57,483 nucleotides of DNA from an uncultured Pseudomonadales bacterium (GCA_964513845.1 CAZENT010000006.1:1-57483), one strand, 5' to 3'; positions 2,936 to 52,700 are shown, counted from the first letter of the stretch. Numbers and translations: made by a program. Notes: a model not told the origin generated them from the letters alone.

Positions 2936-3280
2936 ATGAAAAACTTAAACAGTGAAGAAACTCTTTGGGTAATCCTCCCCATACTCCTTGTGGTAGGTCT
3001 TCTTATTGCCAGTATCATTATTCTCCCCCAAACCCAAACAGAGGTTCGCAGTAAGGCTTCCGAGCCCACCACCACCCCCACCAAAGTCGTTTTGCCAACC
3101 CCTTCCGTTTCAGAACGTCCTGAAATCATCTGTACCACCCTTTACTCTCCCGTTTGTAGTCAAGCAGGTGTTACCTATTCCAGTGAGTGTGAAGCCAACA
3201 AGGCCGGTGTCACTTCTTTCACCCAAGGTGCCTGCTCTGCGGTTCAAACCAAACCCCAACCCCTCCCCCTCGCCAACTAA
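2936..3280 (+). CDS. Membrane-anchored Kazal-type domain protein
   Basis: N-terminal TM, P/T linker, CTTLYSPVC...TYSSECEA...C Kazal pattern. Confidence 0.8.
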   Translation: MKNLNSEETLWVILPILLVVGLLIASIIILPQTQTEVRSKASEPTTTPTKVVLPTPSVSERPEIICTTLYSPVCSQAGVTYSSECEANKAGVTSFTQGACSAVQTKPQPLPLAN

Positions 3281-16795: not shown

Positions 16796-17044
16796 ATGGA
16801 CAACCAAGACCAAACCCCAATTGTAAAATCAACCAAGAAAGATCTTGATCTAAACAATCTCCCTGACCTTTTGACCGTTTCCGAAGTAGCCACGATTCTC
16901 CGTGTTTCCACCCTTACCATCAAGCGTTGGGGCAAACGCGGCAAACTTCCGGCTATTCGTATCAACTCTCGAGGTGATCGCAGATACAAAAAAGAGTCAG
17001 TCCTCTGGATGCTCGGCATCAATCCCACTCAATCCAACTCCTAA
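16796..17044 (+). CDS. Excisionase-like/MerR-like HTH (HTH_17) DNA-binding protein
   Basis: LLTVSEVATILRVSTLTIKRWGKRGKLPAIRINSRGDRRY. Confidence 0.85.
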   Translation: MDNQDQTPIVKSTKKDLDLNNLPDLLTVSEVATILRVSTLTIKRWGKRGKLPAIRINSRGDRRYKKESVLWMLGINPTQSNS

Positions 17045-17177
17045 GGGTACAAAAAAGACCCCGATTCCTCGAAGCCTTTCCTTGTCATCCCCGACCTGAT
17101 CGGGGATCTATATCAATAATACAAATTCGTCATTTCGAGTTTCGTACTCGAACCGTGGCAATCTCACATTTATTTCC

Positions 17178-17241
17178 TTTGATCTGCCCACGCATAGATC
17201 TTACCCTGTCCAAGTAATAAGTTCTATATGGGCAGGTCAAA
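17178..17241. repeat. 64-bp terminal hairpin B (second copy 19593-19656)
   Basis: TTTGATCTGCCCA...TGGGCAGGTCAAA long imperfect hairpin; the two copies are nearly identical and each sits at the distal end of a cassette array. Confidence 0.85.
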
Positions 17242-17329
17242 AGAAATGACCTGTATTCTTTGGATACCCAAAACGGAATGATAAAAGAAATCTTTGGGAG
17301 GGTGTAGACACACCCTCCCAAAACAAGAA

Positions 17330-17890
17330 CTACCGCATCCGACAACTCACTACGGCATCTTCGAAAGATACGAAAGGCTCTTCGTAGTGAGAAGCATGGC
17401 GGCGAAGTGCCGTCTGCGCTTCTTCCCACGATGGTGCTGATCCCTTGCGGACAAAAACATAGGTTTCCCAATCGGGATTTCCATTTGTCCACAGCGCCAT
17501 TACCACAACATTCTCACCTTCGGGGAGATGGTACACTCCATCATCCCCCTGGCAACGGGGTGGATAGGTGAAACTTTCTTCACCTTCCAAATACTTGATT
17601 TTCGTTAATGGCCAGCCCAGCGTTCGGGCAAGCCGCCGAACGGGATTTGTGTCGTTTTCAATTAACGGCATCCGCAACACCTTATTCGGAGTGATGCGAT
17701 AAGCGCGCCCGGCCACAATTGGCCATACCCCCATGACCATTCCCGTGGAGTTGTACTCCACAATGGTGCCCTTGGTTGAAAATTCAGGATCAGGATACAC
17801 TATCATCCTTGTCCCTGATAAGCCCCGACGAATTACTTTTGATCCGTCAGACACCAATTCATCAAAGGTTTTGTCCAAGAAAATAGCCAT
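17330..17890 (-). CDS. Cassette 1 hypothetical protein (186 aa)
   Basis: ORF with SD AAGGAGG inside the leader hairpin; stop abuts the trailer. Confidence 0.75.
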   Translation of the reverse strand: MAIFLDKTFDELVSDGSKVIRRGLSGTRMIVYPDPEFSTKGTIVEYNSTGMVMGVWPIVAGRAYRITPNKVLRMPLIENDTNPVRRLARTLGWPLTKIKYLEGEESFTYPPRCQGDDGVYHLPEGENVVVMALWTNGNPDWETYVFVRKGSAPSWEEAQTALRRHASHYEEPFVSFEDAVVSCRMR

Positions 17891-18190
17891 TTTTGTCCTC
17901 CTTATGGACAGCTCCGCCGTTAAACGACGGAGAAGAAGAAAATAAGATTCTGCTCAAGCTTGCGCCAAAGCAGTTTTGGGCATACCAGCCCGTTTTGAGT
18001 ATCCAAACTCATATATTGTCATTGCGATCCGCCTTTGGTGGAGAAGCAATCCCCGACATGCGGAGGTTACCTCGACCTTTCGGCTTCACAATGGACAAAT
18101 ATATATTTTAAATCTGGATACCCAAAACAGAATGATAAAGAAATGATGTGGGGGGGGGGTAAAAAAACGCCCCCCCCCAAAAAAAATCTC

Positions 18191-18343
18191 TCACAAGTTC
18201 TTTTTTCTCTTGATAACAATCAAGAGAAATGCAAAAAAGAAACCTGCAACGATCAATCCGAGCTTTACGAGCTCGGATTCAACGATAAACGTGCCCAACA
18301 AACAGGCACATCCTACCACAAATACAATTTTAAACCAGATCAT
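18191..18343 (-). CDS. Cassette 2 small two-TM protein (50 aa)
   Basis: MIWFKIVFVVGCACLLGTFIVESELVKLGLIVAGFFFAFLLIVIKRKKNL; ATG 18343 at the same distance from the leader SD as other cassettes. Confidence 0.65.
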   Translation of the reverse strand: MIWFKIVFVVGCACLLGTFIVESELVKLGLIVAGFFFAFLLIVIKRKKNL

Positions 18344-18569
18344 TATTGCCCTCCTTTGGGGCCACTCCGCCGTGAATGCGACGGAGATTAAATCAACACT
18401 CTGCTCCAGCAATTGCCTTTGGCAGTTTGGGGCATATCAGCCCGTTTTGAGTATCCAAATTATTAAATTTCAAAGTTCAAACTTTCTTCGAATCGCACCA
18501 CCGCCAACAAATTTCACCTCACCAAAAAAATCGCCAAACTAGCGACAAAAAATATAGGGAAATGGAAAT

Positions 18570-18699
18570 GAATTACTGTTTGGACAGGTAATTCGGTAAC
18601 ACCTCTTGGAAGTGGTGCGACTCGAATTTGAAAGTTCTTGGCAATCGATTGATTGTCAACTATAGCCGATAGTATATCACAATATTATAGGTTTGTCAA
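18570..18699 (-). promoter_or_regulatory. Array header A: promoter TTGACA-17-TATACT, 53-bp conserved leader and GAATTAC hairpin (second copy 22807-22976)
   Basis: 18607-18659 versus 22884-22936 differ at 4 of 53 positions; hairpin GAATTAC...TTGGACAG-GTAATTC present in both. Confidence 0.75.
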
Positions 18700-18710
18700 C
18701 TTGAGGGATT

Positions 18711-19331
18711 TTATCCAATCTCAACCAACTTGACGTTTTGGACAATGACGCTTTTTACAGTCAACCAGCTTACGTTTTTGTGCATTTTTGGGCTAGGCTG
18801 ATCCTCCGCGTCATCAAAATACACCAACGATTTTAAAACATGAAGCAAATTGTATTCCTGATCACTGTATTTTTTCTTCATAAATCCAAAAATATCAGGC
18901 AAAGAAAACTCCTCCATAATGAAAAAAAGGTCAATGAAGTCTTTCTTAGATCCTCTTGCTGAAATAGTAATTAATTTTGTACAAGCAACATCCTGAATCG
19001 AAGATATTTTTATCCCATCCAGTATCTGTGGTTCTTCAAGCAATCTATACGGGTAATAGAGAAACTGTAATTTCACATTGTCCACAAAACAATTGAGAGT
19101 TCCAGAGTCCATTGACGCTTCTGTCAGATGAAGTTCTTTTTTCAATATTTGTAGTAAGTTTTCCGGTTCAAACTCTTCCTGGGTAAAAAAATCTAAATCT
19201 ACTGATTCACGATGACCCAAATGAAGCGCCAAGGCCGTTCCTCCAGACAAGTAAAAATTTCCAGGCAAACCAATCTTTGTCAGTTTGTCAAATAGAGCTT
19301 TTGTTCCCGGTGCAAGTGTTTCTGTGTGCAT
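18711..19331 (-). CDS. AbiEii/AbiGii-family nucleotidyltransferase toxin
   Basis: FYLSGGTALALHLGHRESVDLDFF and KKDFIDLFFI motifs. Confidence 0.9.
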   Translation of the reverse strand: MHTETLAPGTKALFDKLTKIGLPGNFYLSGGTALALHLGHRESVDLDFFTQEEFEPENLLQILKKELHLTEASMDSGTLNCFVDNVKLQFLYYPYRLLEEPQILDGIKISSIQDVACTKLITISARGSKKDFIDLFFIMEEFSLPDIFGFMKKKYSDQEYNLLHVLKSLVYFDDAEDQPSPKMHKNVSWLTVKSVIVQNVKLVEIG

Positions 19332-19332
19332 A

Positions 19333-19554
19333 TTAAAAGTATAACCGCCAAAAATTACGCGATTTCGGACTCATTTTTTTTGATAAATTTTTTTTCAGTT
19401 CCTGTTTAGATACTTTTCCGGTAAGCCACTTCACAGCCCTTGCATTTCCCTTTTCCAAAATAGTATTGGAAATATAATTTTTATGTTTTGCCATACTCAA
19501 ATCTCTCAAATCATCGCCCCAAAAATACTTAGAGATAAACCTAGGTATTATCAT
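19333..19554 (-). CDS. Small cognate antitoxin (DUF6922-like)
   Basis: YFWGDD...YISNTILEKG...VKWL...SRNFWRLYF; 1 bp upstream of the AbiEii gene. Confidence 0.75.
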   Translation of the reverse strand: MIIPRFISKYFWGDDLRDLSMAKHKNYISNTILEKGNARAVKWLTGKVSKQELKKNLSKKMSPKSRNFWRLYF

Positions 19555-19773
19555 TACCTCTATTTTACCTCAAAACAAGACTAACAGCTTCCTTTGATCT
19601 GCCCACGCATAGACCTTACCCTGTCCAAGTAATAAGTTCTATATGGGCAGGTCAAAAGAAACGACCTGTTTTTTATGGATACCCAAAACGGAATGATAAA
19701 TATGTAGGGAGAGAGGAAGCTAGACAGGCAACCTCTCTCCCACAAGACAATCAGGGGGGGGTGATGGAAAAAT

Positions 19774-20085
19774 CTACCACGAGCCTCTTGATGTGCCGTG
19801 TGCCGGCACCGGCTCGGTGTGAGCCAGCACCGCACAACACTTTTTGCTGGGGACCTCAATGGTCGTCCAGCTCTGACTCTCAATCATTCCTTCCGGAACG
19901 ACCGAGTCCCACGAGTATCGGACGATAACTTGCCCGTCCGATACGGAAACACAGTGGAAATCTCGGGAAACTTCCCATTTCCCGAATTTTCTGGCGAGAT
20001 CAATCTCGCCCATCGCCACCATCTCCGCCATTTTGACGGCGGTGGCACCAAATACGAACTCGATCATTTCAACAAATTCATTCAT
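19774..20085 (-). CDS. Cassette 3 hypothetical protein (103 aa)
   Basis: ATG directly after the leader SD hairpin. Confidence 0.65.
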   Translation of the reverse strand: MNEFVEMIEFVFGATAVKMAEMVAMGEIDLARKFGKWEVSRDFHCVSVSDGQVIVRYSWDSVVPEGMIESQSWTTIEVPSKKCCAVLAHTEPVPAHGTSRGSW

Positions 20086-20308
20086 CTTTGCCCTCCTTTA
20101 GGGCCACTCCGCCGTGAATGCGACGGAGAAATAAATCAAACTTCTGCCTCAGGCAATTGCCTTAGCAGGTAATTAACACGGGTGATAAGTATCAACCCGT
20201 TTTGAGTATCCAAACTCATATATATTGTTAATCTGGATACCCAAAACGGAATGATAAAAAAATGTAGGGAGAGAGGAAGCCAGACAGGCAACCTCTCTCC
20301 CACAAGAC

Positions 20309-20542
20309 TTACTTCCAGGTCCACCCGGGCTCAATGGCCCTGATGGCCTGGATGGCCTCATCTTCAATTTCCTTCTTGGTTTCCCAAGAAGGAGACGCAC
20401 CACGCATTCTCACTATGGTGTGAGTTGTGTCTGGACCATCGTGGATAATTGTGTGAAAATACGATAAGCCCAATTCTTGGGCCTTGTTGACTATTTGTTC
20501 GATGGGGTGATTTTCCCCACACCTTGCTGTAAAAATAATCAC
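20309..20542 (-). CDS. Cassette 4 hypothetical protein (77 aa)
   Basis: GTG 20542 after AAAGGAGG; stop abuts the trailer GTCTTGTG. Confidence 0.65.
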   Translation of the reverse strand: MIIFTARCGENHPIEQIVNKAQELGLSYFHTIIHDGPDTTHTIVRMRGASPSWETKKEIEDEAIQAIRAIEPGWTWK

Positions 20543-20750
20543 TGTGTCCTCCTTTGGACAGCTCCGCCGTGGAACGACGGAGAAAAAAGAAAAAGATTCT
20601 GCCTCGGCAATTGCCAAAGCAGTTTTGGGCATACCAGCCCGTTTTGAGTATCCAAACTCATATATATTTTTAATCTGGATACCCAAAACGGAATGATAAA
20701 AAATGTGAGGAGGGGGAAATGTCAAGACAGCCAATCCCCCTCCCACAAGA

Positions 20751-21227
20751 CTAAGAGTACTTTATTTTTGCCTCTTCCATCCTTCGGAAGAGTTCCCTAA
20801 CCGCATCAGCCTGGTTCGGGTTTAACCCAATAAATACCTGCTCTTTTAATATTTCAAAAAAGAACAAGCTTTCTTTTTTTGTTGGCCATCCATTCTCGCC
20901 GATATCGACGAGTAGTTCCAACACTGAGACAACGGGGATCGTTGTCATGAATGGATTAATTAGGCATCCACGCTCTAGATCAAAGCCGTTGAGCCCTAGA
21001 TATTTCCACCCATCTGCAACTTTCCAAAGTTTTTCGCCCAGAATTTTCTCTGGGTTGTCCCTATGCCAATAAAAAGTTGGCAACTCAGGATCCATTGGGT
21101 CTGTGAAGACCCCAAGAGCATACTCGCCCTTATATTGGGCGATGCGGAACCTAGGAAAAACACTTTCCCTCAGTTCTGGGGGCAAACAATCAAATACACC
21201 CCTTTTCAAAAATTTTATTTTCATCAT
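20751..21227 (-). CDS. Cassette 5 hypothetical protein (158 aa)
   Basis: ATG after the leader SD; stop abuts the trailer. Confidence 0.75.
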   Translation of the reverse strand: MMKIKFLKRGVFDCLPPELRESVFPRFRIAQYKGEYALGVFTDPMDPELPTFYWHRDNPEKILGEKLWKVADGWKYLGLNGFDLERGCLINPFMTTIPVVSVLELLVDIGENGWPTKKESLFFFEILKEQVFIGLNPNQADAVRELFRRMEEAKIKYS

Positions 21228-21553
21228 TGCCCTCCTTTAGGGCCACTCCGCCGTGAAATCGGACGGAGAAAAAGATAAAACTTCTGCCTCAGGCAATTGC
21301 CTTTGGCAGTTTTGGGCATACCAGCCCGTTTTGAGTATCCAAACTCATATATATTTTTAATCTGGATACCCAAAACGGAATGATAAAAAATGTTGGAAGG
21401 GGGAAATGACAAGACTGCCAATCCCCCTTCCACAAGACTGATTGTTATTTTCCACTCATTTGAATGAAAAAATTACAGGTTATCAACCTAACTTTTTTAA
21501 AGAGAAGTCACCTCTCTAGCGCCAATCCTCTTTTTACCCGCCTTGCGGCGAGT

Positions 21554-22294
21554 TTAATCGAAAAGATTGGCTTCCTCCTCAAGCCGTGCTTTCACGGACT
21601 TGAGGTTGGACAAATCATACCGGCATTCACTTTCAGCCGGTAAAGACGACTGGTCAACAATCGACCCGTCCATAATACTCACCTCGGGGGCTTCCGCCTC
21701 CGGGATGACGAACATGTCCTGCCGGTGTTCATCCGGCATGTCGGACGAGTAAACCTCCTCGTCCAAATAGGCCGCCGCTTCCCAGTAGGACAAGCCTACT
21801 TGGAAAGCGCTCAGCCGATCGCTTTGTCCCTCGAGGACATAAGCGAAGTGATTTTTGAACTCCACGAGGAGCTTGTGCCCCTCGCGTGCTGCACTTACGG
21901 CCCCCCAATTCGACCGGCAGCCAACTCGCTGCTTTTCGATGGTCGCTCCCGCCCTGAAGATCAGGACGGACCAGGGGGTCTTGACAGGGCGCAGTGCCCC
22001 GGTTCCTTGCATCCAGGGGAAACCCTGAATGCCGATTATCCAGGTGCGCTCAGCCAAGGACGGGTGCACGCGTTCGTACACCTCGACAAACCCTTCGGAG
22101 GACTGGGCCCGGTAGCCCTTCAGGGGGATGATGATGTCATACCCTCTATTGAACAGCCTTTCACCAAAATGGGCCAGAGGGCCCAGGTCTGCGCCGAAGC
22201 GCAGAACGACACCCTGTCCAGCGACTCTCGTCGCCGAAACAGAGTATACCCGCAGTTCGCGGGTGAATGTGTCGATCAAAAGATGCTTTGCCAT
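21554..22294 (-). CDS. Cassette 6 hypothetical protein (246 aa, visibly GC-rich)
   Basis: ATG after the leader SD; acidic C-terminus; own small terminator hairpin near 21535-21553. Confidence 0.75.
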   Translation of the reverse strand: MAKHLLIDTFTRELRVYSVSATRVAGQGVVLRFGADLGPLAHFGERLFNRGYDIIIPLKGYRAQSSEGFVEVYERVHPSLAERTWIIGIQGFPWMQGTGALRPVKTPWSVLIFRAGATIEKQRVGCRSNWGAVSAAREGHKLLVEFKNHFAYVLEGQSDRLSAFQVGLSYWEAAAYLDEEVYSSDMPDEHRQDMFVIPEAEAPEVSIMDGSIVDQSSLPAESECRYDLSNLKSVKARLEEEANLFD

Positions 22295-22429
22295 TTTAAT
22301 TGCCCTCCTTTAGGGCCACTCCGCCGTGAATGCGACGGAGAGATAGAAATCAAACTCCTGCCTCGAGCAAACGCCTTTGGCAGGGAAACTAACACGGGTG
22401 ATACATATCAACCCGTTTTGAGTATCCAG

Positions 22430-22790
22430 AATAACCTCTTCCTCATAAGCATTCCCGAGTAATCTCGGTCTCCGTTAACAGCAGTAAACCATGTTTACCT
22501 TGCGGATTTTACGAGGAAGATTATTAATGTTAAGGTCCCAGCATTCTTCGGGTCGCGCCACTACCTTCCTCGGAAAACCGAGAAAGCTAGTGTGTCTTGT
22601 AGCTTTTATCCCCGATTTACTCGTCGTATCCCCGTCAACCGAGGGCGATCTATAAAGAAGTAGATAAAAGTACTGGTTCTGCTCATCCTCACTACCGAAG
22701 CTATCTCGGCTAGAAGACTCACAGAGTTAATTAAACGTCTTATGCCGAAGCAGCGTTTAACTCCAGACTGCACACAGGAAACATATGAAA
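22430..22790 (-). ncRNA. Putative large structured non-coding RNA between header A and cassette 6
   Basis: No ORF in the track; many nested hairpins including UUCG- and GCAA-capped stems; lies downstream of the 22948-22976 promoter. Confidence 0.4.
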
Positions 22791-23142
22791 ATTGGACAAG
22801 TTTTGTGAATTACTTTTTGGACAGGTAATTCAAGTACACCTATGGAAATTTTTAACGCATTCGCGTTTGGACAGTTTCCTTATTGGCAGTGGTGCGACTC
22901 GAATTTGAATGTTCTTGGCAATCGTCTGATTGTCAATGATAAGCAACAGTATAACACAATGTTATGGGTTTGTCAAGTAGTGTTTACAACTTGGCTCTGG
23001 GTTCGTGTTACCTAAATGTGCTTATTACAGGTATATATTACCACATCTTATAGTATTTGTCAATCCCTATTAACATCCACAAACACATCGCTATCCGTCA
23101 ACATCCCTTGACACTCCTCTAGTTTCCCTATACCATCTATAT

Positions 23143-26533: not shown

Positions 26534-27424
26534 CTAAGGATCGAGCGTAAAACCAAGCACCGCTCGGTTAAATAAATAAGATGGAGATCCATCGGCCGCT
26601 TGGTCGCCGAACTCCCCTACACAAAATTTTAGCAACCAGCCATTCTCTGCCATCACCTTTTCAAAGCCAGCTTCAGGAATATTATTTATCAACCACGACT
26701 TAGTTGTCATAGTTGCATTGTCATAATCCTCAACCAGCTCATGTGGCACAATCACGGCCGCCGATATTCGAAGAGTTAACTTCTGTCCCAAACAGCCCTC
26801 AGTTACCTCAAAATCGCTTAACGGCTGCACACTTCCTTCAGGCATCTGGCACAAATACGCTTCACTTCCTACGAGAGTCTGTATCAGTTCTTTCCCCTCT
26901 TCCAAACTCCTTACTCCACCTTGAGGTTTCACTCTCAGATACAGTTCCAAGTTCGTGGCAAAGATTTTTTTACCTCGATAGATACCTGAATGTGCCCAAG
27001 TAGAAGTGATATCTCCCAAGTACGAGTAAACCGTACCATTTCCAGGAAGAAAAACCTCGTCGGGATCAGTTCCCTTGTAGCCTATCGGCTGTGCCCAGTT
27101 ACTGGTAATCACAGATCCGTCAGACAATCGAACAACCAAAGCGATTGGTCCGCCATTTTCCAAATCAATCTTTTCTCCCAGCACATAGTTTTGTACCGGA
27201 AAAGGCGTTGGCGTTGGTGGAACACTGGTTGGTGTTGGTGCTATAGCTGTCGGAGCAACGGGCATAAAGGGGGTTCTCGTTGCTTGAATACTTTGCACCA
27301 CATCAGCAGAAACAATTTCTGGTTGGCTGTATTTAGCCAATAAATCCCAGTAAGCATTAACCCCCAGAAAAATAATCATACTTAAACCGATAATCAACGC
27401 CAAAAACTTACCAACTAGTTTCAT
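26534..27424 (-). CDS. Putative divergent sortase
   Basis: N-terminal TM anchor, PT linker, candidate His-Cys-Arg triad (WAHSG, LLKFC, NRAVL); adjacent to a protein with a sorting-signal-like tail. Confidence 0.55.
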   Translation of the reverse strand: MKLVGKFLALIIGLSMIIFLGVNAYWDLLAKYSQPEIVSADVVQSIQATRTPFMPVAPTAIAPTPTSVPPTPTPFPVQNYVLGEKIDLENGGPIALVVRLSDGSVITSNWAQPIGYKGTDPDEVFLPGNGTVYSYLGDITSTWAHSGIYRGKKIFATNLELYLRVKPQGGVRSLEEGKELIQTLVGSEAYLCQMPEGSVQPLSDFEVTEGCLGQKLTLRISAAVIVPHELVEDYDNATMTTKSWLINNIPEAGFEKVMAENGWLLKFCVGEFGDQAADGSPSYLFNRAVLGFTLDP

Positions 27425-27490
27425 TCTTCCTCCTCTCGATACAAAATTGGGTCGGGGCAGTTGCCCCGACCCAGAAAAGGATAATACTTA

Positions 27491-28336
27491 TCAAGCCTTA
27501 AAAATCAGGCCCAATAAGCCAATAACGGCCATTAAACCACCAATATAGAATCCCAACGGCATCCCTAACCCGCCTCCCGCTCCAGTTTCCTGAGGTTTGG
27601 GCGTGTTGGTCGCTGTTGGCGGCACGACCGTATCGGTCGTAATCGGCGTTCCCGTTGGCGGAACCACTGTATCGGTTGGTGTATTCGTAACCAACGTCGG
27701 CGTTCCCGTCGGTGGCACAACAGTATCAGTCAACGTGGGTGTATTGGTAGGTTGATCGGTAATCGTAAGTGTACCGGTCGGAGTGTTTGTAACCAATGTC
27801 GGTGTCCCGGTTGGCGGGACCACCGTGTCGGTCGCAGTCGGATTTTCCGTCGTAGTTGGTGTATTTGTTGGCGGAACGACAGTGTCGGTCAACGTCGGTG
27901 TCCCGGTTGGCGGGACCACCGTGTCGGTCGCAGTCGGCGGTACATCTGTATCAGTCGCAGTTGGTGTTGGTGTATCGCATGGACCATGGGACAGATTAAA
28001 CTGTCCATCCCACTCTTCGTAAATCATGGCCGTTGCGCCCTGTACAACCAAATCAAGATTTTGAACTGACTTGTAGTGCGCTGTACCTCCCGTAAATTTT
28101 TCCAAGTCAATTACTTCTTGAGTACCATTGGTAAAAGTAACGGTTACATTTGGCGGAACATGATCCAATGTATCGATCTGGGTGATTACAAACACTCTTT
28201 CGGTGTCATCACAACCATGATCATTAATAGCCTTGGCAGAAATTTCTTTCAAGCCTTCCGCTTGAACAGATATGGCGCTGGCAAACATAACTACCAGCCC
28301 AACAATAATTAAAAAGACACTAAAAACTCTGCGCAT
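27491..28336 (-). CDS. Secreted T/P-rich repeat protein with LPxTG-like C-terminal sorting signal
   Basis: Signal peptide, TDTVVPPT repeats, C-terminal PQETG followed by a hydrophobic helix and Lys. Confidence 0.75.
   Translation of the reverse strand: MRRVFSVFLIIVGLVVMFASAISVQAEGLKEISAKAINDHGCDDTERVFVITQIDTLDHVPPNVTVTFTNGTQEVIDLEKFTGGTAHYKSVQNLDLVVQGATAMIYEEWDGQFNLSHGPCDTPTPTATDTDVPPTATDTVVPPTGTPTLTDTVVPPTNTPTTTENPTATDTVVPPTGTPTLVTNTPTGTLTITDQPTNTPTLTDTVVPPTGTPTLVTNTPTDTVVPPTGTPITTDTVVPPTATNTPKPQETGAGGGLGMPLGFYIGGLMAVIGLLGLIFKA
27600..27975. repeat. Intragenic tandem repeats encoding TDTVVPPT(G/N/A)TP units
   Basis: Includes an exact 44-bp direct repeat at 27798-27841 and 27894-27937. Confidence 0.85.
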
Positions 28337-34192: not shown

Positions 34193-34266
34193 GCTGATGT
34201 AGCTCAGTTGGATAGAGCATCTCACTCCTAACGAGAAGGTCCCCAGTTCGACTCTGGGCATCAGCA
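34193..34266 (+). tRNA. tRNA-Arg(CCT)
   Basis: Full cloverleaf GCTGATG...CATCAGCA, anticodon loop CT-CCT-AA, TTCGACT T-loop. Confidence 0.92.
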
Positions 34267-34283
34267 CAAAACACTAAAACCAT

Positions 34284-34358
34284 TGGTCGGGGTGCGGAGA
34301 ATTGAACTCCGTGTCTCTTCGTCCCGAACGAAGCGTGATACCGATTCACTACACCCCG
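34284..34358 (-). tRNA. tRNA-Pro(CGG)
   Basis: CGGGGTG...CACCCCGACCA cloverleaf, loop TT-CGG-GA. Confidence 0.95.
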
Positions 34359-38432: not shown

Positions 38433-39278
38433 CTAAGATACTTTATAAAACTTTCCCGATTTTTCCTCAACCAAACCATCCAGCTCCATCGCCAATATCT
38501 GCTCCATTAGCTTCGAAACAGGCATTTTCAAAACTCTTGTCAGCTCATCAACACTCTTTTCTCCGCTCACTAGAGCCTCAAGAATCGGATTGGAGGAAAA
38601 ATCATTTTTAAAGCTAATTCTCATCTGCCCAGCTTTCAATCCCATTTCAAACAAGATATCCTCCGCCGAAGTCACCATCACAGCCTTTCCTTTCTTAATC
38701 AAATTATTTGTTCCCTCAGCCACTCTGTTTGTCACCAAACCGGGAACCGCAAACAATAGTTTCCCAAACTGGTTTGCCAGCCGTGCCGTGATCAAACTTC
38801 CGGACCTCTCCGCGGCTTCAATTACCAATACAGCATCGGCAATTCCAGCTACCACTCGATTCCTTTGCGGAAAAGTCCACTTGTCTGCCGGGTACTCACC
38901 CTCATACTCAGACACTATCAAACTATCAAGTTCTGGTATTTGCTGGTACAGTTTTTCATCATCAGCACTTACTTTTCGATCAATTCCCCACCCCAAAACC
39001 GCAATTGTCTTTCCCCCGTTATCCAAACAAGCCTTGTGTGCCGCTTGGTCTACTCCATACATAAATCCGGACACAATAGTAACCCCCTTTTGCACTAAGC
39101 TTGGCATCCACTTCTCGATTATTTTCTTTCCATAATCCGTCATTCGCCTACTTCCCACAATCGCGAGCTTCGGCGCATCATCCAGAAGCAAATCAACATT
39201 CCCCTTGTACAAAACTCTCTCCACACTTGGCTTTATCCTTTTCAAATTCTCACTCCACCTTTTCTTTGGCAGGTTCAT
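38433..39278 (-). CDS. dprA: DNA-processing protein DprA
   Basis: LAIVGSRRMT, IVSGFMYGVDQAAH, FPQRNRVVAG, EAAERSGSLITA, C-terminal wHTH. Confidence 0.96.
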   Translation of the reverse strand: MNLPKKRWSENLKRIKPSVERVLYKGNVDLLLDDAPKLAIVGSRRMTDYGKKIIEKWMPSLVQKGVTIVSGFMYGVDQAAHKACLDNGGKTIAVLGWGIDRKVSADDEKLYQQIPELDSLIVSEYEGEYPADKWTFPQRNRVVAGIADAVLVIEAAERSGSLITARLANQFGKLLFAVPGLVTNRVAEGTNNLIKKGKAVMVTSAEDILFEMGLKAGQMRISFKNDFSSNPILEALVSGEKSVDELTRVLKMPVSKLMEQILAMELDGLVEEKSGKFYKVS

Positions 39279-42225: not shown

Positions 42226-42230
42226 ATTTG

Positions 42231-42301
42231 TGGACCTGGAGGGAATTGAACCCTCTTCTCGCCCATGCCATGGGCACATTCTACCGGTGAACTACAGGCC
42301 C
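42231..42301 (-). tRNA. tRNA-Ala(GGC)
   Basis: GGGCCTG/CAGGTCC acceptor with G3:U70; loop AT-GGC-AT. Confidence 0.92.
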
Positions 42302-42399
42302 TCGAAGTTATAAAAAATCTTCAACAAAGCTGATTATAAATCATACTAGCCAGAGATTCCAGCTCCGAATGATCATATTATTGCTAAAATATATCTACT

Positions 42400-42470
42400 G
42401 GGCTTATAGGTAAGTGGTATACCGCTTCATTCGCATTGAAGAGTCGCCGGTTCGATTCCGGCTAAGTCCA
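42400..42470 (+). tRNA. tRNA-Ala(CGC)
   Basis: GGGCTTA/TAAGTCC acceptor with G3:U70; loop TT-CGC-AT; TTCGATT T-loop. Confidence 0.92.
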
Positions 42471-42556
42471 CATTTCTTGTGATATACTATAGGCAAACTT
42501 AACCGGCTACTCAAAGTGCCGAGCACATTCCCAAAAAAAAAGGAAGGAATCGATCA

Positions 42557-46786: not shown

Positions 46787-49700
46787 TTACTGACCTCCAG
46801 CTAAACCCCCTAAAAATCCGAAGGCTTGAGAAAGATTGCCCACAACCAGGTTCAAAGCGCTTTGTGTTGCTTTTGGTGTGATTACAACCGTATCGATCGA
46901 CTCGGCCACATTTGCGCCAAGATCGGCCGAAACAGCTTTCAAGCGATACACTTTTGAGGGAACTAAATTCTGGATAACCACAAGATGGGTATATACCGGC
47001 GCAGAATCAACCTGAGTTTTGTTGGCTAACGCTCCAGTTGAGCCCTCTCCGTATACCACCTGAGAGCTTGCCAACTCATCTGTTTCCCAAGACACAATTA
47101 GCTGTGCCCTTGCCTCCTCACCAGTGCCCTGAATTGACATCTCAGTGTTCATATTACTAATCTGAGGAGGTCTGGTATCAGAAGCCGTTGTGAAAATTTG
47201 CGACTCAGAAATAGCCTCGTTTCCGCCCTTATCTCTACCCTTAACGATCAAAGTGTAAGGAGCGTTGGCGATCAAACCTTTGATGATCATCTTGTGAGCC
47301 TTGGTCATCTTGATATCCACACTATCCTTAACCATCGAAGGGCTAGCGGAAGGATAATAAGTTACGATAGAAGATACTTCTGTGTTTGAAGACCAGGTAA
47401 TGAGCATGGTACTGGTCGCGGCACCCTTTACTTGTTGCAACTTTACGTTTGTCACTTTTGGTCTAGGTAAAGTTTCAAAAGAATAAATATCACCCGGATA
47501 CACTGCTCCATCAACATCAAACAAATCAACACGATAGTAGTATTTAGTTCCATCTTCAAGTCCTTCAAGATACACACCATAAGTGGCTTCTGTGGGTGAT
47601 ATTGCCAGCTCAGCAGTGCCACCAAAAGATGTCGATTTCCCATACAATACCGAAACCTTTTCAGCACCAGATGAAGTGAAGTTGATTGTTGCTTTATCTA
47701 GGCCCACGCTTGTTGCTTTGACCTCTTTTGCAGAAGGTGCAGGACTGGTACTAAAACTATTCTCATCACTAATGCCCAGATTACCATCCTCATCAGTCCA
47801 TTTTGCCACATAATAATACGTAGTTCCTGGAGCCAAGTTGGTAATCGTCAACACATGGCTAATCGCTTGGTCAGAGTTTCCCACTTCAGTGTCGATGTAT
47901 TTTCCGGGCTCTGTGCCGTAAGCAATCTTAGAATCGGAGGTTCTATTGGTTGTCCAGCTAATGGTTGCTTTTTTTGTTGTTACATTTGAAGCCATAGGTT
48001 CATCCACAAGGTCGGCCGGCAAAATAAATTTGCCGTCCGGGTACTGCTCCACAATCGAGCCAAAAGCTCCGCAGTTGTTGGCGCTGTCGCAAGCCTTCAC
48101 CTTGTACTGATATGTAAGCTGTGACAAGCCTGTGTCTACATACGATATACCAGCCGTTGAAGCCACTTTGGTAAATGTCGCTCCAGCATCACTGGATCTC
48201 CAAATCTGATAACTCGCCACGTTATCCCCGCCCTCACTTGGCTGTTGCCAGGTAATGGCAATCTTCCAAGCCTTGGTGGCTTTAACCGACACATCTGCAA
48301 TATCCATGTTCTCTGGCATACCTGGGGCTGGTGTATTGGCATAAAAAGTTGCTGTCGCATACTGTTTGAAATCAATATTACCCGCTTCATCTTTGGCCAC
48401 AACATAGAAAGTATTTTCACCCGGTAAAGTTGCATAAGGTCCTGGTATTAAGTGAGTTAGCGCAGTTTCTTGAACATTTGCAATCGAAGGAAGAGCGTTC
48501 ACGCTATAGAAATATCGAAGATTGCTGATATTGCCATAGTAAACCTCAGGCGCAGACCAAGAAAATTCGAAGGAGTTGGTTGCTGAAGTTTCCGGAGACA
48601 CAGACAAGCTCTTCGGAGGCGACGGTGAATCATCATTGAAATAATATGACACTGTTGAGGTCGGACTAAAATTACCCGCATTGTCTTTGGCGCGAAGATA
48701 GAATGTGTTAGCGCCTTTTTTGTATGAAGGCACATCTGTAATTGTTAACTCTGTTGTACATCTTTCTGTCGCGAAATCTCCAGTTGACGCGCCTGTCTTG
48801 TAACAATAACCCGCGATGCCTGAAGCACTGTCTGTCGCAATACCCCATGAGAAAGAAAATCGATCAACAGCAGAGTAGCCAGAAGGGTCTGCCGAAAGAT
48901 CATCGGGCTGTGTTGGCGCTCTGTTATCAAATTTATAGACAAATGGTCTCCAAATATTTTCATTGACATTCCCTGCTTCATCTTTTGTGGTCAGGGCAAA
49001 ATAGTATGTCTCTCCGGAAACAAGACCGGATGTCACCATATTATTTTCTTCTTGGAAATAACTTTCAACTACAGGATTACCGCTATCTGTTGCAAACATG
49101 GCTGCGTAATACCCTAAAACACCTGAGCCGGTTGCTGTGTCTGTAGCTCCACTCTCAGATCCTTCCTCCGGCCATGTAATATCTATAGCGGGATATGGAT
49201 ACCAATTATTTGACTGGATTTGAGCCGAGTTTGTGGCTGTACTATATACTTTCAAACCCTCGTCGGATGGGTTTTCTGGCGCGGTTGTGTCTTGAATATA
49301 GTTAATTGTGTAGTCAGAAACAACTCCCGATCCAATACCTCTCAACGAAGTTAAACCTATCTTAATCTGAATATAAGGATTTACTGGTGATGATATCTTG
49401 TACTCATATGTCGTGTTGTTCAATATTTTGAGAGAATTTGCACTTACCCAAGAAGACCATGTTTCCGCATCAGCAGACGAACGGGTATAAACCGAAATAC
49501 TTGAGTCGTTAGCACTAGAATACGTTAATCTCAAATTACTCCATTTATAAACGTCACCAACAAAATGTGCCCCTGAAATGAACTCTCCGCTTTCTTCAAA
49601 ACTAGCCGTTGTGGATGGTATTACATAGGTATAAACACCGTCTCCAAAAGTAGCCGTTCCGTTCCCGGCTAACAAATACAGTCTTCCATCTCCACCGTTA

Positions 49701-52700
49701 ACCATTCCACCACCTGATGTCACGTTAGCCGGTAATCGTGGCATAACCTCCCAAGTATTATTTGCAATTGAGTATCTTAAGAAATGATATGAGTTTTCAC
49801 CTTTTACAAAATATAAATATCCATCGCGACCGTCTGCCAAAGCAGCACCGTAATACGCTCGATATGTTGTTGAAGGTAAATCGGCCACAAGAGGGTCTGA
49901 CCAAGTATTAGCAGCCACATCATATCGATAAAAACTCAAAGTGGCATCTCCTCTGGTCGCGTAGATATATCCATCTTTATAGACCAATGACGCACTATTC
50001 CCCGCATAGGGGATGTTTGCCATTGTGCTCCAACGTGATCCTGAATTCGCTAAGTAGTCGTAACGATAAAAAGATGATCCACCTCCTCTCGTCCAATAAA
50101 GGTACCTACTTCCGTCAAAAGTCAAGGTTGATCCGTACTGGTTAGGTAAAGCCGGTGGATTATCATCCTCAGACCACGTATTGGTTGCGATATCGTATAC
50201 AAATAATTTTTGCCAATAACTTGATACAAAATATATTTTATTGTTTACACTGTTGTACTCAATATTTTGACCAAACATCGAACCGCTTGGAAGTGGAGAT
50301 AAATTGATAATCTCTCCTGTTACCTTGTTGTAACGAACAAAATTATTTGAATAATTACCTTTTGTCAGATATAAATAATCTCCGTCACCTCTTATGATTG
50401 AACCACCATAACTTGGCATATCATAAGAAGAACCATAAAAGTTCTTTCCAAACAAACCACTCGTTGGAATCTGCCAATAATCTGTGGCAATATCATATTT
50501 CCAAACCAGCTGTGAATTGCCACCCGCGGTTACCATTAAACTTCCACCAATATTTCTAATATCTGAACCGTAACTAATTCCTGCTGGAGCATCGCTTAGA
50601 GCAATCCATGTTTGCGTGTTTATATCAAACTTAAAAAAGTCAGGCGTACCAACCCCAGAAGTGTAATAAACAGCGTTGCTATCTTGATCAAAGTAGATTG
50701 AACTACCAGATCCTGCAATTGTGGGAAGGTCAGTTAATACTGTCCATTGATCGTTTGTTATTGAGTATGAAGAGAAACTTGGCTGTGAGTATCCTTGAAT
50801 TGAGTAGATTGTGTCATTCCCATCATAAGTTAAATCACCACCATCATAGACTAAGTTATTTGATGCTTGATCAGGAGCTCCGTAATCTGTGTTATCTAGT
50901 GTCGCCCAAGTATCTGTTGTGGTGTCGTAAGACCAAAAAGTATCATCAGCGTTACCTCGAGTCACATAAATATATCGACTGCCGTCATATATCATACTAC
51001 TTCCGTAATGTATTGTATTTGGAGCGTCAGCCATATCTTCCCAAGTATTATTGACAATTGAATAGCGCATAAAACCAGCCGTATTATTTCCTCTTAAGGC
51101 GAAAAGAAATCCTTCTGGTCCTTCAATTACTCCTCCGCCCATGTAAACACTACCTCCAGAACCAGCCAGTTGAGTCCAAGTATCACTTCCAAAATCATAT
51201 TCGTAAAAGTTTGTACTATTGTTCCCTTGGAAAGTATAAAGTTTATTTGTGCTGGCGATATATGCCATAGTTCGAGCACCGTAAGAAATTCCGACGGGTG
51301 AAATCGAAAGTCTATCTTGAAGCCATATTCCATTTGATTTACCCGCCAGCTTAATTTCATCACCATCAACATTAATATTTGTTGCACTTCCCGTAGCAAA
51401 TTCTGTCGTCAAACTTGCCGTAGAAGTTTTCTCGGCCGGAATTCCACTGTAAATATAGTTAAAGGCATTTAAACTACTAGATACATTTCCAGAAGTGTCT
51501 TTTGTCTTAATTAACAAATAGTAACTTCCAGCACTAAGAGGCTCGGTCACTGTGTAGTTTGAAGTCGTCTGCCAAGTACCTGAATCAACCGGGTTGGCGC
51601 TACTCGAGTTACCAAAATACACATAATACCCCGCTACTTCAGTATCTGAATCAGAAGCTCCAGTCCAAGAAAAATACGGACTTGTAAACGAATATGTTTG
51701 GCCACTAACTAAATTCACGCCAGCCACTTCTGTCGACTTTGCCGTAAGATTCGTAGGATTTGAAGGGGCTATTGTATCCCCAGCATAATTAATTGCTATA
51801 GATTCAACAATTGGAGTATCTGTGTTGTCAGTGGTTGAGTTTATACCTACTTTTACCTGAATATATCTTGCGACCGGTGACTGAATACTATCTCCTGACG
51901 TTAATTGCCAACTGGACCAAACCAACTTGTCAGAACTTGTTCTTGTCGAGTATGTGACCATACTATCTCCTGGTGTAGACTCAACGGTATCAAGGCTACT
52001 CCAAGCTGTAACATATCCAAGATCAATTACCCCACTTGTCCATATTCCGGCATCAACATAATTGTCTGAACTTTGTGAATATTTTAAAACGTACTGAGTA
52101 CTTCCTCCTCTGATGATATATATTCCTCCATTACCATCAGATTTTACCGAACCACCCTCATGGGTTCCCCATCCAGCTGAACCCATTGTTGGCATATCTG
52201 TCAACCTTCTCCAGGAATCCGAGGTAATTGTGTATTCGAACAGTTCTTTATCGTAATTTCCAGGAATAGCGATAAATTTTCCATGACCATCATAAACCAT
52301 ATCCGACCCTGACATTGGTGCAAATGGCAACCTAGAAAGAGTACTCCAAGTGTTTGTTGCTATAGTATATTTTTGAAAATTTGATACACCCAGTCCTGGA
52401 ACTAAATATAGATCCGTTCCGTCAGAGACAAAAGCAGTTCCACTGCCAGCATATACTTCAGACTGTAAATCTGCGACGGCAGCGTCATCCCAAGAATTAC
52501 CACTAATACTATATCTCCAAGTTGTTGCTGTTCCACTTCCACGAACAGAGTAAATAAAATCACCACTTCCTGGATATGCTAATGCACCATCACTGACAGT
52601 TGCGGGAGTAACTGTCAAAGTAGTCCAGGTATTCGAACTAATCGTGTATTTTTGAAACTGAGTCGTCGCTGCCGAACCGCCCATCATATAAATCTCGCCA

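Follow-up and report, generated by a model that had tools for sequence, protein, structure and literature searches.

How can a bacterial chromosome hold, side by side, a series of mutually unrelated genes that all sit within closely similar non-coding frames? The question is raised by a locus at 17178-22976 in a stretch of DNA of 57,483 nucleotides—hereafter the window, by which we mean the whole of that stretch—from an uncultured Pseudomonadales bacterium (GCA_964513845.1 CAZENT010000006.1:1-57483). An initial annotation of the locus had proposed an integron-analogous platform for the capture and shuffling of genes, driven by a recombinase encoded elsewhere. We found that the locus is a real and modular cassette array that fits no known cassette system; and we propose, with a confidence that stops somewhat short of even, that it constitutes a hypervariable locus of standard single-gene expression slots, the contents of which would be exchanged by recombination inside the conserved frames.

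Architecture of the Two Arrays

The 16-mer TGGATACYCAAAACRG occurs 12 times in the window, always within 17261-22428, against an expectation of 0.16 copies; no shuffled sequence reaches 12, and the other 51 kb contain none, so that the dispersed copies of the site envisaged by the initial annotation were not encountered there. Six copies (at 17261, 18115, 19676, 20234, 20676, and 21363) lie on the plus strand and six (at 17990, 18442, 20197, 20639, 21326, and 22413) on the minus strand, and position 8 of these arms is specific for the end, being C in all six plus-strand copies (C-type) and T in all six minus-strand copies (T-type). Each pair of C- and T-type arms brackets a single open reading frame (ORF) of 50-246 amino acids, invariably on the minus strand, with a leader of 109-134 nt and a trailer of 69-191 nt. 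Two such cassettes (C1, C2) make up array 1 and four (C3-C6) array 2; the six inverted-repeat-bounded single-ORF units originally described, together with the three 21-nt spacers between them, are therefore borne out. For the comparison with relatives we used two short contigs from other samples, L129 (Logan SRR29243430) and L134 (SRR29243437), which bring the material to three strains and nine units. The cassettes and junctions of the window are the following:

17261..18005, minus strand: cassette C1, with the 3' arm at 17261-17276, a trailer hairpin, an ORF at 17330-17890 (186 aa), a four-hairpin leader, and the 5' arm at 17990-18005
18006..18114, minus strand: junction C2/C1, a 21-nt spacer split by an element of ~84 nt that resembles a miniature inverted-repeat transposable element (MITE), as judged from the alignment with the uninterrupted junction of L129
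18115..18457, minus strand: cassette C2, with the 3' arm at 18115-18130 (A for G at position 15), a poly-G/poly-C hairpin, an ORF at 18191-18343 (a 50-aa peptide with two transmembrane [TM] segments), a leader, and the 5' arm at 18442-18457
19676..20212, minus strand: cassette C3, ORF at 19774-20085 (103 aa), leader of subtype b
20213..20233, minus strand: spacer of 21 nt, in the sense orientation GATTAACAATATATATGAGTT
20234..20654, minus strand: cassette C4, ORF at 20309-20542 (77 aa, GTG start), leader of subtype a
20655..20675, minus strand: spacer of 21 nt, in the sense orientation GATTAAAAATATATATGAGTT
20676..21341, minus strand: cassette C5, ORF at 20751-21227 (158 aa), an orphan gene
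21342..21362, minus strand: spacer of 21 nt
21363..22428, minus strand: cassette C6, the first unit of array 2, ORF at 21554-22294 (246 aa, GC content 0.57), a private 3' untranslated region (UTR) of 116 nt, leader of subtype b

Read on the strand of the ORF, a unit runs from the 5' arm TGGATACTCAAAACGG into a leader ending in AAGGAGG(G/A)C, and then through the start codon, the ORF, and the trailer to the 3' arm CCGTTTTGGGTATCCA; the latter is the 5' arm inverted, position 8 being C instead of T. The trailer is itself ordered, with (T)CTTGT followed by a G/C-rich hairpin, a T-run, and ATCATT immediately before the 3' arm. The inverted repeat formed by the two arms comprises 16 perfect bp, extends imperfectly to ~23 bp, and has the termini 5'-TG...CA-3'; in the leaders of C1, C2, C4, and C5, moreover, a degenerate second copy of the arm lies 18 nt further in, as had been noticed before. 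Among the three strains the arms are unchanged in 17 of 18 copies, and the spacer of 21 nt—AT-rich and unstructured—is nearly invariant. At the three uninterrupted junctions of the window (20213-20233, 20655-20675, and 21342-21362) the succession of arm, spacer, and arm can fold into a 16-bp hairpin, of which the sense strand gives the better version (G.T; -13.3 kcal/mol, as against C.A and -11.2 kcal/mol for the antisense strand).

The contents of the units contrast with this uniformity: the six ORFs, whose GC contents span 0.37-0.57, encode mutually unrelated proteins, the initial annotation having already called the ORFs mostly unrelated, and the longest exact repeat between units measures 88 nt. 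The limits of the homology are, furthermore, exact. At all four array ends, as well as in the spacer, homology ends precisely at the outer edge of an arm (the flanking contexts being the spacer, B1, B2, A1, and A2; see below), in keeping with the earlier remark that it stops at TGGATAC/GTATCCA and that the arrays end in half-sites; no degenerate partner arm was found 21 nt outside the terminal arms, so that the array ends contain no hybrid full sites. Alone among the parts of the module, the arms and the spacer lack compensated variants, and they are therefore probably a recognition site for a sequence-specific protein.

Three other identities for these sites were ruled out. A DNA-uptake sequence is incompatible with the absence of the motif from the other 51 kb of the window; the likeness to a CRISPR repeat is limited to the ends GTTTTG...CAAAAC, the would-be spacers being genes of 340-1066 bp; and the 21-nt spacer, non-palindromic and too short to accommodate two 11-bp Xer arms, does not contain a dif-like core.

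Leaders and Trailers

All six leaders share a predicted fold of four hairpins, P1 to P4, within a 5'UTR of ~95 nt (fold z-scores of -2.4 to -4.3). The P1 hairpin exists in two subtypes; a U-run follows P2, which scores as terminator-like; P3, formed by CUCCGUCG..CGGCGGAG, is confined in the window to the six leaders; and P4 contains the Shine-Dalgarno (SD) sequence. P4 has the form GUCC..GGAC in some units and GCCC..GGGC in others, the two changes being linked in such a way that the pairing is preserved, and the stem of the trailer is found in four sequence versions, all of them fully compensated, with a change from G-C to A-T distinguishing C5 and C6. Because of those pair-keeping changes, the parts of the leader and the trailer behave like structured RNA, with a predicted function as 5'UTR and as terminator or stabilizer. 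A conserved upstream ORF in the leader was ruled out, the reading frame stopping after 19 codons in C5 as against a run of 40 codons in C4. Finally, the subtypes of leader and trailer are distributed among the units as a mosaic, with patches corresponding to P1, P3, and P4 swapped, so that the shuffling of subtypes originally reported is upheld.

The Array Ends and the Predicted Promoter

Two kinds of flanking segment are common to both arrays: the A segments (17174-17260 and 19589-19675) are 96% identical and the B segments (18567-18699 and 22804-22976) 81-86% identical. The ORFs being on the minus strand, B constitutes the upstream and A the downstream end of each array. The sharing of A and B had been seen correctly in the initial annotation; A had there been taken for a header with a promoter, which assignment we could not sustain, since the predicted promoter is in B and A is a 3' hairpin.

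17174..17260, minus strand: A1, a hairpin of ~75 nt at the 3' end of array 1 (fold z-scores of -6.2 and -7.0 on the two strands), also present in L129
19589..19675, minus strand: A2, the 3' hairpin of array 2
18458..18699, minus strand: B1, with a predicted promoter (18699->18671), the operator-like palindrome TTGACAATCAATCGATTGCCAA, a long closed hairpin domain (z -5.9), and a terminator-like site (18546->18530)
22429..22976, minus strand: B2 together with the adjoining segment X, with a predicted promoter (22976->22948), an operator-like palindrome, and a closing stem of the B1 type around ~380 nt of structured non-coding sequence (z -4.9)

Both B1 and B2 carry, on the strand of the ORFs, a predicted sigma-70 promoter TTGACA-17-TATACT with a TG extension (11 of 12 matches). 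The promoter is followed by TTGACAATCAATCGATTGCCAA, a near-palindrome of 22 bp, and then by the long closing stem, which encloses ~100 nt in B1 and ~380 nt in B2/X. The A hairpins, whose fold z-scores are about -5 to -7, contain no promoter; nor do the junctions have a sigma-70 site of at least 9 of 12 matches, or one recognizable by eye. Each array would accordingly begin with a strong promoter of the sigma-70 type, an operator-like palindrome, and a long structured leader, and would end with the long hairpin A.

The structured non-coding region behind the near-consensus promoter of array 2 measures ~500 nt (22429-22945, minus strand) and includes several loops of the UUCG/GCAA type; its counterpart in B1 measures ~200 nt (18458-18668). 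A search of Rfam, at the gathering threshold and at E<=5, returned nothing credible for the leaders, the junctions, A, B, or X. The B/X region, with which both arrays begin, is a candidate for a new structured RNA. At 22429-22535 (minus strand), ~105 nt that separate the B2 homology (..ATTAATAATC) from the first 5' arm fold into a hairpin domain of their own, with the inverted ends AATAATCTTCCTCGTAA / TTATGAGGAAGAGGTTATT; that stretch is missing from B1 and may represent a second small insertion, situated exactly at an arm boundary.

The heptamer TGTCCAA is enriched ~12-fold at the locus, 10 of its 17 copies in the window lying within these 5.95 kb, among them 17207 and 19622 (plus strand) and 18580, 20554, 22792, 22817, and 22867 (minus strand). 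It is found in the loops of both A hairpins (plus strand), in B, and beside the SD of a leader of type a; and the A-loop sequence in the sense RNA, UUGGACAG, is complementary to CUGUCCAA of B and the leaders. This complementarity and the placement of the motif suggest one of two things, a DNA-binding protein common to these sites or a contact between RNAs.

Comparison with Related Strains

Both L129 and L134 share the cassette frame of the window. L129 reads, in order, leader, small two-TM ORF, trailer, 3' arm, intact spacer, 5' arm, leader, C1 homologue, trailer, 3' arm, and A, so that its gene families follow the order of array 1, the small TM ORF being homologous to C2 and occupying the same slot. 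The variation in order that shuffling would predict is consequently not seen for array 1 in the sole comparable relative, an outcome that the initial annotation had itself listed as speaking against its proposal.

The frames and their contents differ strikingly in divergence. Between strains the frames are 89-97% identical, as against 51-64% for the encoded proteins, the synonymous sites of the ORFs being saturated or nearly so. The C1 protein is 51% identical to its L129 homologue, with a third-position identity of 0.29 and a synonymous divergence (dS) beyond computation, whereas the leaders are identical at 103 of 116 positions (100% over the first 67 nt) and the trailer, arm, and A at 110 of 113. 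The C6 protein shares 64% of its amino acids with the homologue in L134 (dS 1.15), the first 20 codons being 100% identical and the leader agreeing at 121 of 134 positions. To judge from these alignments, the ORFs are ancient and highly divergent alleles between strains, and the frames appear much younger than the ORFs inside them, or else homogenized. Frames so similar around coding sequences saturated at synonymous sites require recent recombination.

Each ORF family has nevertheless retained its private variant of the frame across strains: the C6 homologue of L134 possesses the private P2 variant and the private 116-nt 3'UTR of C6, with a P4 of the other subtype. The upstream unit of L129, for its part, has a leader and a trailer of subtypes unlike those of C2. 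The surroundings of C6 also vary, since in the window that cassette is the first of array 2, whereas in L134 another unit stands ahead of its homologue, the spacer between the two containing a MITE-like element. Relative to the asymmetric spacer, A, and B, the orientation is uniform among all nine units of the three strains.

The insert in the C2/C1 spacer had been noticed before and described as a repetitive extragenic palindromic (REP) element; its presence is confirmed, though we assign it to another type. It is a MITE-like element of ~84 nt (about 18016-18099) with short terminal inverted repeats, the ends TTGTC(C)ATTG...CAATGACAA, and a TATAT duplication, and it occurs once in the window. 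A related copy in L134 (about 38-121) occupies the same TATAT position of the spacer; the two copies differ by several substitutions and precede different cassettes, C1 in the window and the C6 homologue in L134.

How the Contents of the Frames Might Be Exchanged

The reuse of one frame by different ORFs, the relative youth of the frames, and their patchwork composition together require recombination inside the frames; and, with private frame variants kept while the coding sequences went to saturation, allele replacement and gene conversion by homologous recombination are the simplest explanation. On the hypervariable-locus reading—which we prefer tentatively, at a little less than an even chance—the exchange would most simply proceed by general homologous recombination on incoming or sister DNA with the frames as homology arms, a route to which the DprA encoded in the window lends some plausibility. 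The outcome would be the replacement of alleles over the stretch from the SD to the stop codon and gene conversion between frames; the gain or loss of a unit plus spacer through looped-out circles would be a by-product; and the cassettes would be transcribed from the B promoter through leaky hairpins.

Certain features of the locus, however, weigh against that reading. Homologous recombination by itself does not account for the exact ends of homology at the arm edges in five flanking contexts, for arms invariant in 17 of 18 copies next to a nearly invariant spacer, or for the strictly end-specific T/C difference; it leaves unexplained the first entry of a new ORF into a frame; and the claims at the level of populations are based on three strains, two of which are represented by short related contigs. 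The invariance of the arms and spacer, the exact breaks, and the T/C asymmetry are signs of sequence-specific recognition, so that a dedicated recombinase, whether integron-like or of another chemistry, has still to be reckoned with.

We also weighed a dedicated, integron-like platform for capture and shuffling, in which a recombinase encoded elsewhere would recognize the arms or the folded junction, excise circles of unit plus spacer, and reinsert them in one direction behind the B promoter. Such a platform would suit the arms and spacer as the most conserved part of the module, free of compensated variants; the abrupt loss of homology at the ends of the arms, whether next to the spacer, B1, B2, A1, or A2; the junction hairpin that folds better on the sense strand (-13.3 versus -11.2 kcal/mol); the second, degenerate arm copy in four leaders; and the failure to find target duplications. 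It would likewise suit co-oriented units without promoters of their own behind one strong predicted promoter, the prevalence of orphan genes of varied GC among the cassettes, and the different context of the C6 homologue in L134. Yet the array 1 families and their order are the same in L129; the ORFs have diverged far beyond their own private frames, contrary to a movement of whole units; a MITE in the spacer is tolerated in two strains; and attC cores are lacking, as are copies of the arm outside the arrays within the window. Nor did a Pfam search of ~50 ORFs of the 57-kb window (the small ORFs at the locus, together with the majority of those ORFs of at least 110 aa that are not nested) reveal any domain of an integrase, recombinase, or transposase. 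We thus judge the platform unlikely: of the initial proposal the modular cassette architecture stands, whereas the capture driven by a recombinase is not supported, none having been found in the 57 kb and the order of array 1 being kept in L129.

Searches for the sites beyond the window were similarly unproductive. Across genome contigs the bare 16-mer arm gave chance single matches in unrelated taxa, none with the flanking AATGATAAA or a partner arm; the 25-mer of arm plus AATGATAAA and the gapped junction pattern had 0 matches in the Joint Genome Institute (JGI) metagenomes and IMG/VR; the 17-mer and 19-mer arm patterns matched, in IMG/VR, coding sequences of unrelated viruses only; and the whole locus gave no blastn match in phage and plasmid collections. 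The supposition that a novel recombinase, encoded elsewhere, acts on the arms or on the arm-spacer-arm hairpin—the locus then being a second, attC-independent capture system, which would place ORFs precisely between a structured 5'UTR with an SD and a terminator—is possible but doubtful.

According to a quite different explanation, the arrays are an old and static tandem duplication, whose module is purely regulatory (terminator, processing hairpin, and 5'UTR) and is kept by selection and gene conversion, with nothing being exchanged. The conserved order of array 1 between strains, the behavior of the leader as a structured 5'UTR, and the duplication of A and B together with the arrays would all accord with such a history; but six ORFs of 50-246 aa without similarity to one another and with GC contents of 0.37-0.57, the identity of 89-97% between frames around saturated ORFs that requires recent recombination, and the change in the context of C6 between strains would not, and we give this explanation little credence.

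The units might also be mobile insertion cassettes (MICs), that is, passenger genes between inverted repeats of the insertion-sequence (IS) type, for whose movement a cognate IS would supply the transposase in trans and whose repeated targeted insertion would have formed the arrays; a transposase gene bounded by TGGATACYCAAAACGG would then exist elsewhere in the genome. The 5'-TG...CA-3' termini, the 16 perfect bp extended imperfectly to ~23 bp, the subterminal repeat at one end, and the absence of a transposase inside the units are as such cassettes would have them. This origin is still quite improbable, for no unit has a target-site duplication, insertion leaves the constant 21-nt spacer unexplained, all nine of the nine units have one orientation and occur only inside A/B frames, and the window contains neither dispersed copies nor a transposase.

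Very improbable, in turn, is the possibility that the arms are inversion sites at which a trans-acting invertase flips the cassettes with respect to the B promoter, rendering their expression phase-variable, on or off. The geometry is that typical of invertible segments, every ORF with its leader lying between inverted repeats of 16-23 bp, and for Bacteroides such trans-acting invertases with many target sites are established; the nine units of the three strains, however, share one orientation, and no invertase was found nearby.

Lastly, short-read contigs of the same strain (L135 and L136) do break at A1 and B2, which would fit a repeat-induced assembly artefact, but the longest exact repeat measures 88 nt, every ORF is unique, and junctions built in the same way are spanned by two contigs that come independently from other samples, so that misassembly—a concern voiced in the initial annotation—is an unlikely source of the architecture and can, like chance, practically be dismissed.

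Comparison with Known Cassette Systems

The locus works like a cassette array of the kind seen in integrons, in promoter/stem-loop (PeSL) regions, or in the recombinase-associated orphan-immunity arrays called rAID-1, but fails the testable defining features of each of those families. With integrons, among which we count sedentary chromosomal integrons and CALINs, it shares co-oriented, promoterless, and mostly orphan single-gene cassettes of varied GC behind one strong promoter, here a predicted one, and a highly similar, imperfectly palindromic repeat between cassettes that folds better on one strand. The attC sites of integrons have the cores R''(RYYYAAC)...R'(GTTRRRY) and a length of 57-141 bp; the present junctions form a palindrome of 53 bp that reads GTT...AAC, not AAC...GTT, the GTT and AAC thus being in the reverse order and the RYYYAAC...GTTRRRY cores lacking. 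A regular expression for the attC core, run on both strands of 17101-23050, found one match, inside the ORF of C6, and none at the junctions, which result rules out classical attC sites and agrees with the non-attC character assigned earlier. In addition, no IntI gene and no recognizable attI were found in the window; the repeated module of ~230 bp supplies an SD and a structured 5'UTR; each unit has both arms, with half-sites at the array ends; and the order of array 1 is kept between strains. Full-text literature searches directed at integrons or gene cassettes of the Patescibacteria, or candidate phyla radiation (CPR)—an affiliation at which only the gene content of the window and relatives of C1 on groundwater contigs hint—brought up nothing comparable.

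In the PeSLs of T4-type phages, repeated intergenic modules flank orphan genes, whose exchange by recombination between modules has been proposed, with mini-circles as a by-product (PMC2839356, PMC4122927). The resemblance is close: in both cases the stop codon is followed in the module by a stem-loop with G/C tracts, then by an AT-rich segment, and finally by the SD and start codon, the genes are orphans, and the differences between relatives map to the modules; indeed, the homologous exchange that we propose follows the recombination logic of the PeSLs (PMC2839356). The PeSLs, however, contain a consensus sigma-70 promoter, in contrast to the junctions described here, are short, lack a pair of 16-bp inverted repeats with a fixed spacer, and belong to phages rather than to a bacterial chromosome.

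The rAID-1 arrays of the Bacteroidales start with a conserved gene of the XerD recombinase family and contain recognizable immunity families (bioRxiv 10.1101/471110). Like the present locus they string together small genes that are unrelated to one another, with repetitive sequence between the genes and a skewed GC content, and they have been read as evidence of active gene acquisition; neither the XerD-family gene nor the immunity families were found at the locus.

The MICs (MIC231; TnXax1) are passenger genes without a transposase between short terminal inverted repeats (PMC4337579). The 16-nt arms with 5'-TG...CA-3' termini around one ORF each, with no transposase inside, are reminiscent of them; but MICs have target-site duplications and the inverted repeats of a known IS, whereas no cognate IS was identified within the window, and no unit has a target-site duplication (the sequences outside the arms reading ..GAGTT | GATTA.., ..AATAATT | GATTT.., and ..GAGTT | AAGAA..). 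The fixed spacer, the strict orientation, and the confinement of the units to arrays set the locus further apart.

The pdif modules of Acinetobacter plasmids are delimited by 28-bp XerC-6-XerD sites, shared by neighboring modules and acted upon by XerC/D encoded elsewhere. Gene modules between inversely oriented short sites, strung in arrays, are common to both systems; in the locus, though, each unit has its own 16-nt arms, 21 nt from those of the next, and no dif-like core is evident.

The Cassette Proteins

The six cassette proteins gave no significant match in Pfam (C2 having one below the threshold) and none in NCBIfam, PADLOC, or PHROGs; C3-C6, when compared with the protein sequences of the PDB, returned nothing below an E value of 0.07. 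The C5 protein (158 aa) matched itself alone among 1.84 billion representative proteins, and C6 has one homologue, that within the cassette frame of L134; the structure model of C6 was too poor and was not used. For C1 (186 aa) there are eight homologues, of which seven are stand-alone genes without the repeats (contigs L121-L128 and L130-L133) and the eighth is the one in the frame on L129. The AlphaFold2 model of C1 has a predicted local distance difference test (pLDDT) score of 89.6, and a Foldseek search with it found no match below an E value of 1e-3 among solved or viral folds. In other organisms (L131, 1-486; L133, 1-493; L122, 1-353) the C1-family gene is solitary and is preceded by a consensus promoter and an unusually long 5' untranslated region of ~300-400 nt; in L122 and L123 it adjoins the 3' end of a tRNA gene.

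Chromosomal Context

The window is chromosomal, as indicated by secE, nusG, the genes for L11, L1, and L10, mreB, ndk, dprA (38433-39278), and four tRNA genes. Two features adjoin the arrays:

16796..17044, plus strand: a DNA-binding protein of the HTH_17/MerR/excisionase type, 82 aa (Pfam HTH_17, 6.9e-10; TIGR01764, excisionase family, 2.5e-07)
18711..19554, minus strand: an AbiEii nucleotidyltransferase toxin (18711-19331; Pfam AbiEii, 1.3e-14) and a DUF6922 partner (19333-19554; DUF6922, 1.6e-05, below the curated cut-off)

The gene for the 82-aa HTH_17 protein is convergent with array 1, just beyond A1, and its product is a candidate binder of the motifs of the locus. The AbiEii/DUF6922 pair, of the toxin-antitoxin or abortive-infection kind, is situated between A2 and B1, and hence between the arrays, and belongs to the context rather than to the cassettes.

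The window as a whole shows a strong negative GC skew (about -0.1 to -0.4), regardless of the strand of the genes, the only exception among its 1-kb bins being 27001-28000. The tRNA genes form two pairs on opposite strands, a convergent one at 34193-34358 (Arg-CCT/Pro-CGG, 16 nt apart) and a divergent one at 42230-42471 (Ala-GGC/Ala-CGC, ~100 nt apart). A protein of 2425 aa (46787-54064, minus strand), probably located at the cell surface and of giant size, combines many Kelch repeats with fibronectin type III, Ig-like, and purple-acid-phosphatase N-terminal domains; and a small ORF at 2936-3280 (plus strand) encodes a Kazal-type serine-protease-inhibitor domain (E 6e-07), a domain unusual in bacteria.

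Significance

Among systems that store single genes as standard cassettes and shuffle them, only the integrons are, to our knowledge, well understood. That the logic of cassettes can also arise by other routes is apparent from the PeSLs (PMC2839356, PMC4122927) and from rAID-1 (bioRxiv 10.1101/471110), to which the present locus would add a further one, apparently in a bacterium of small genome and groundwater type. Its frame is unusually complete, comprising an inverted repeat, a 5'UTR with predicted regulation, an SD, and a terminator, and holds divergent alleles as well as genes without relatives; the locus offers, moreover, two testable non-coding elements—the arm with its spacer and the B/X RNA—and six proteins, one of which has a confidently predicted fold without a structural match. 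A dedicated recombinase, should there be one, would represent a new, tool-like site-specific system; and if the attC-independent capture reading were true, the arrays would amount to a natural array of expression vectors in a bacterium with a reduced genome. Whatever the enzyme, the locus is a defined place in which to study how a variable pool of accessory genes is maintained.

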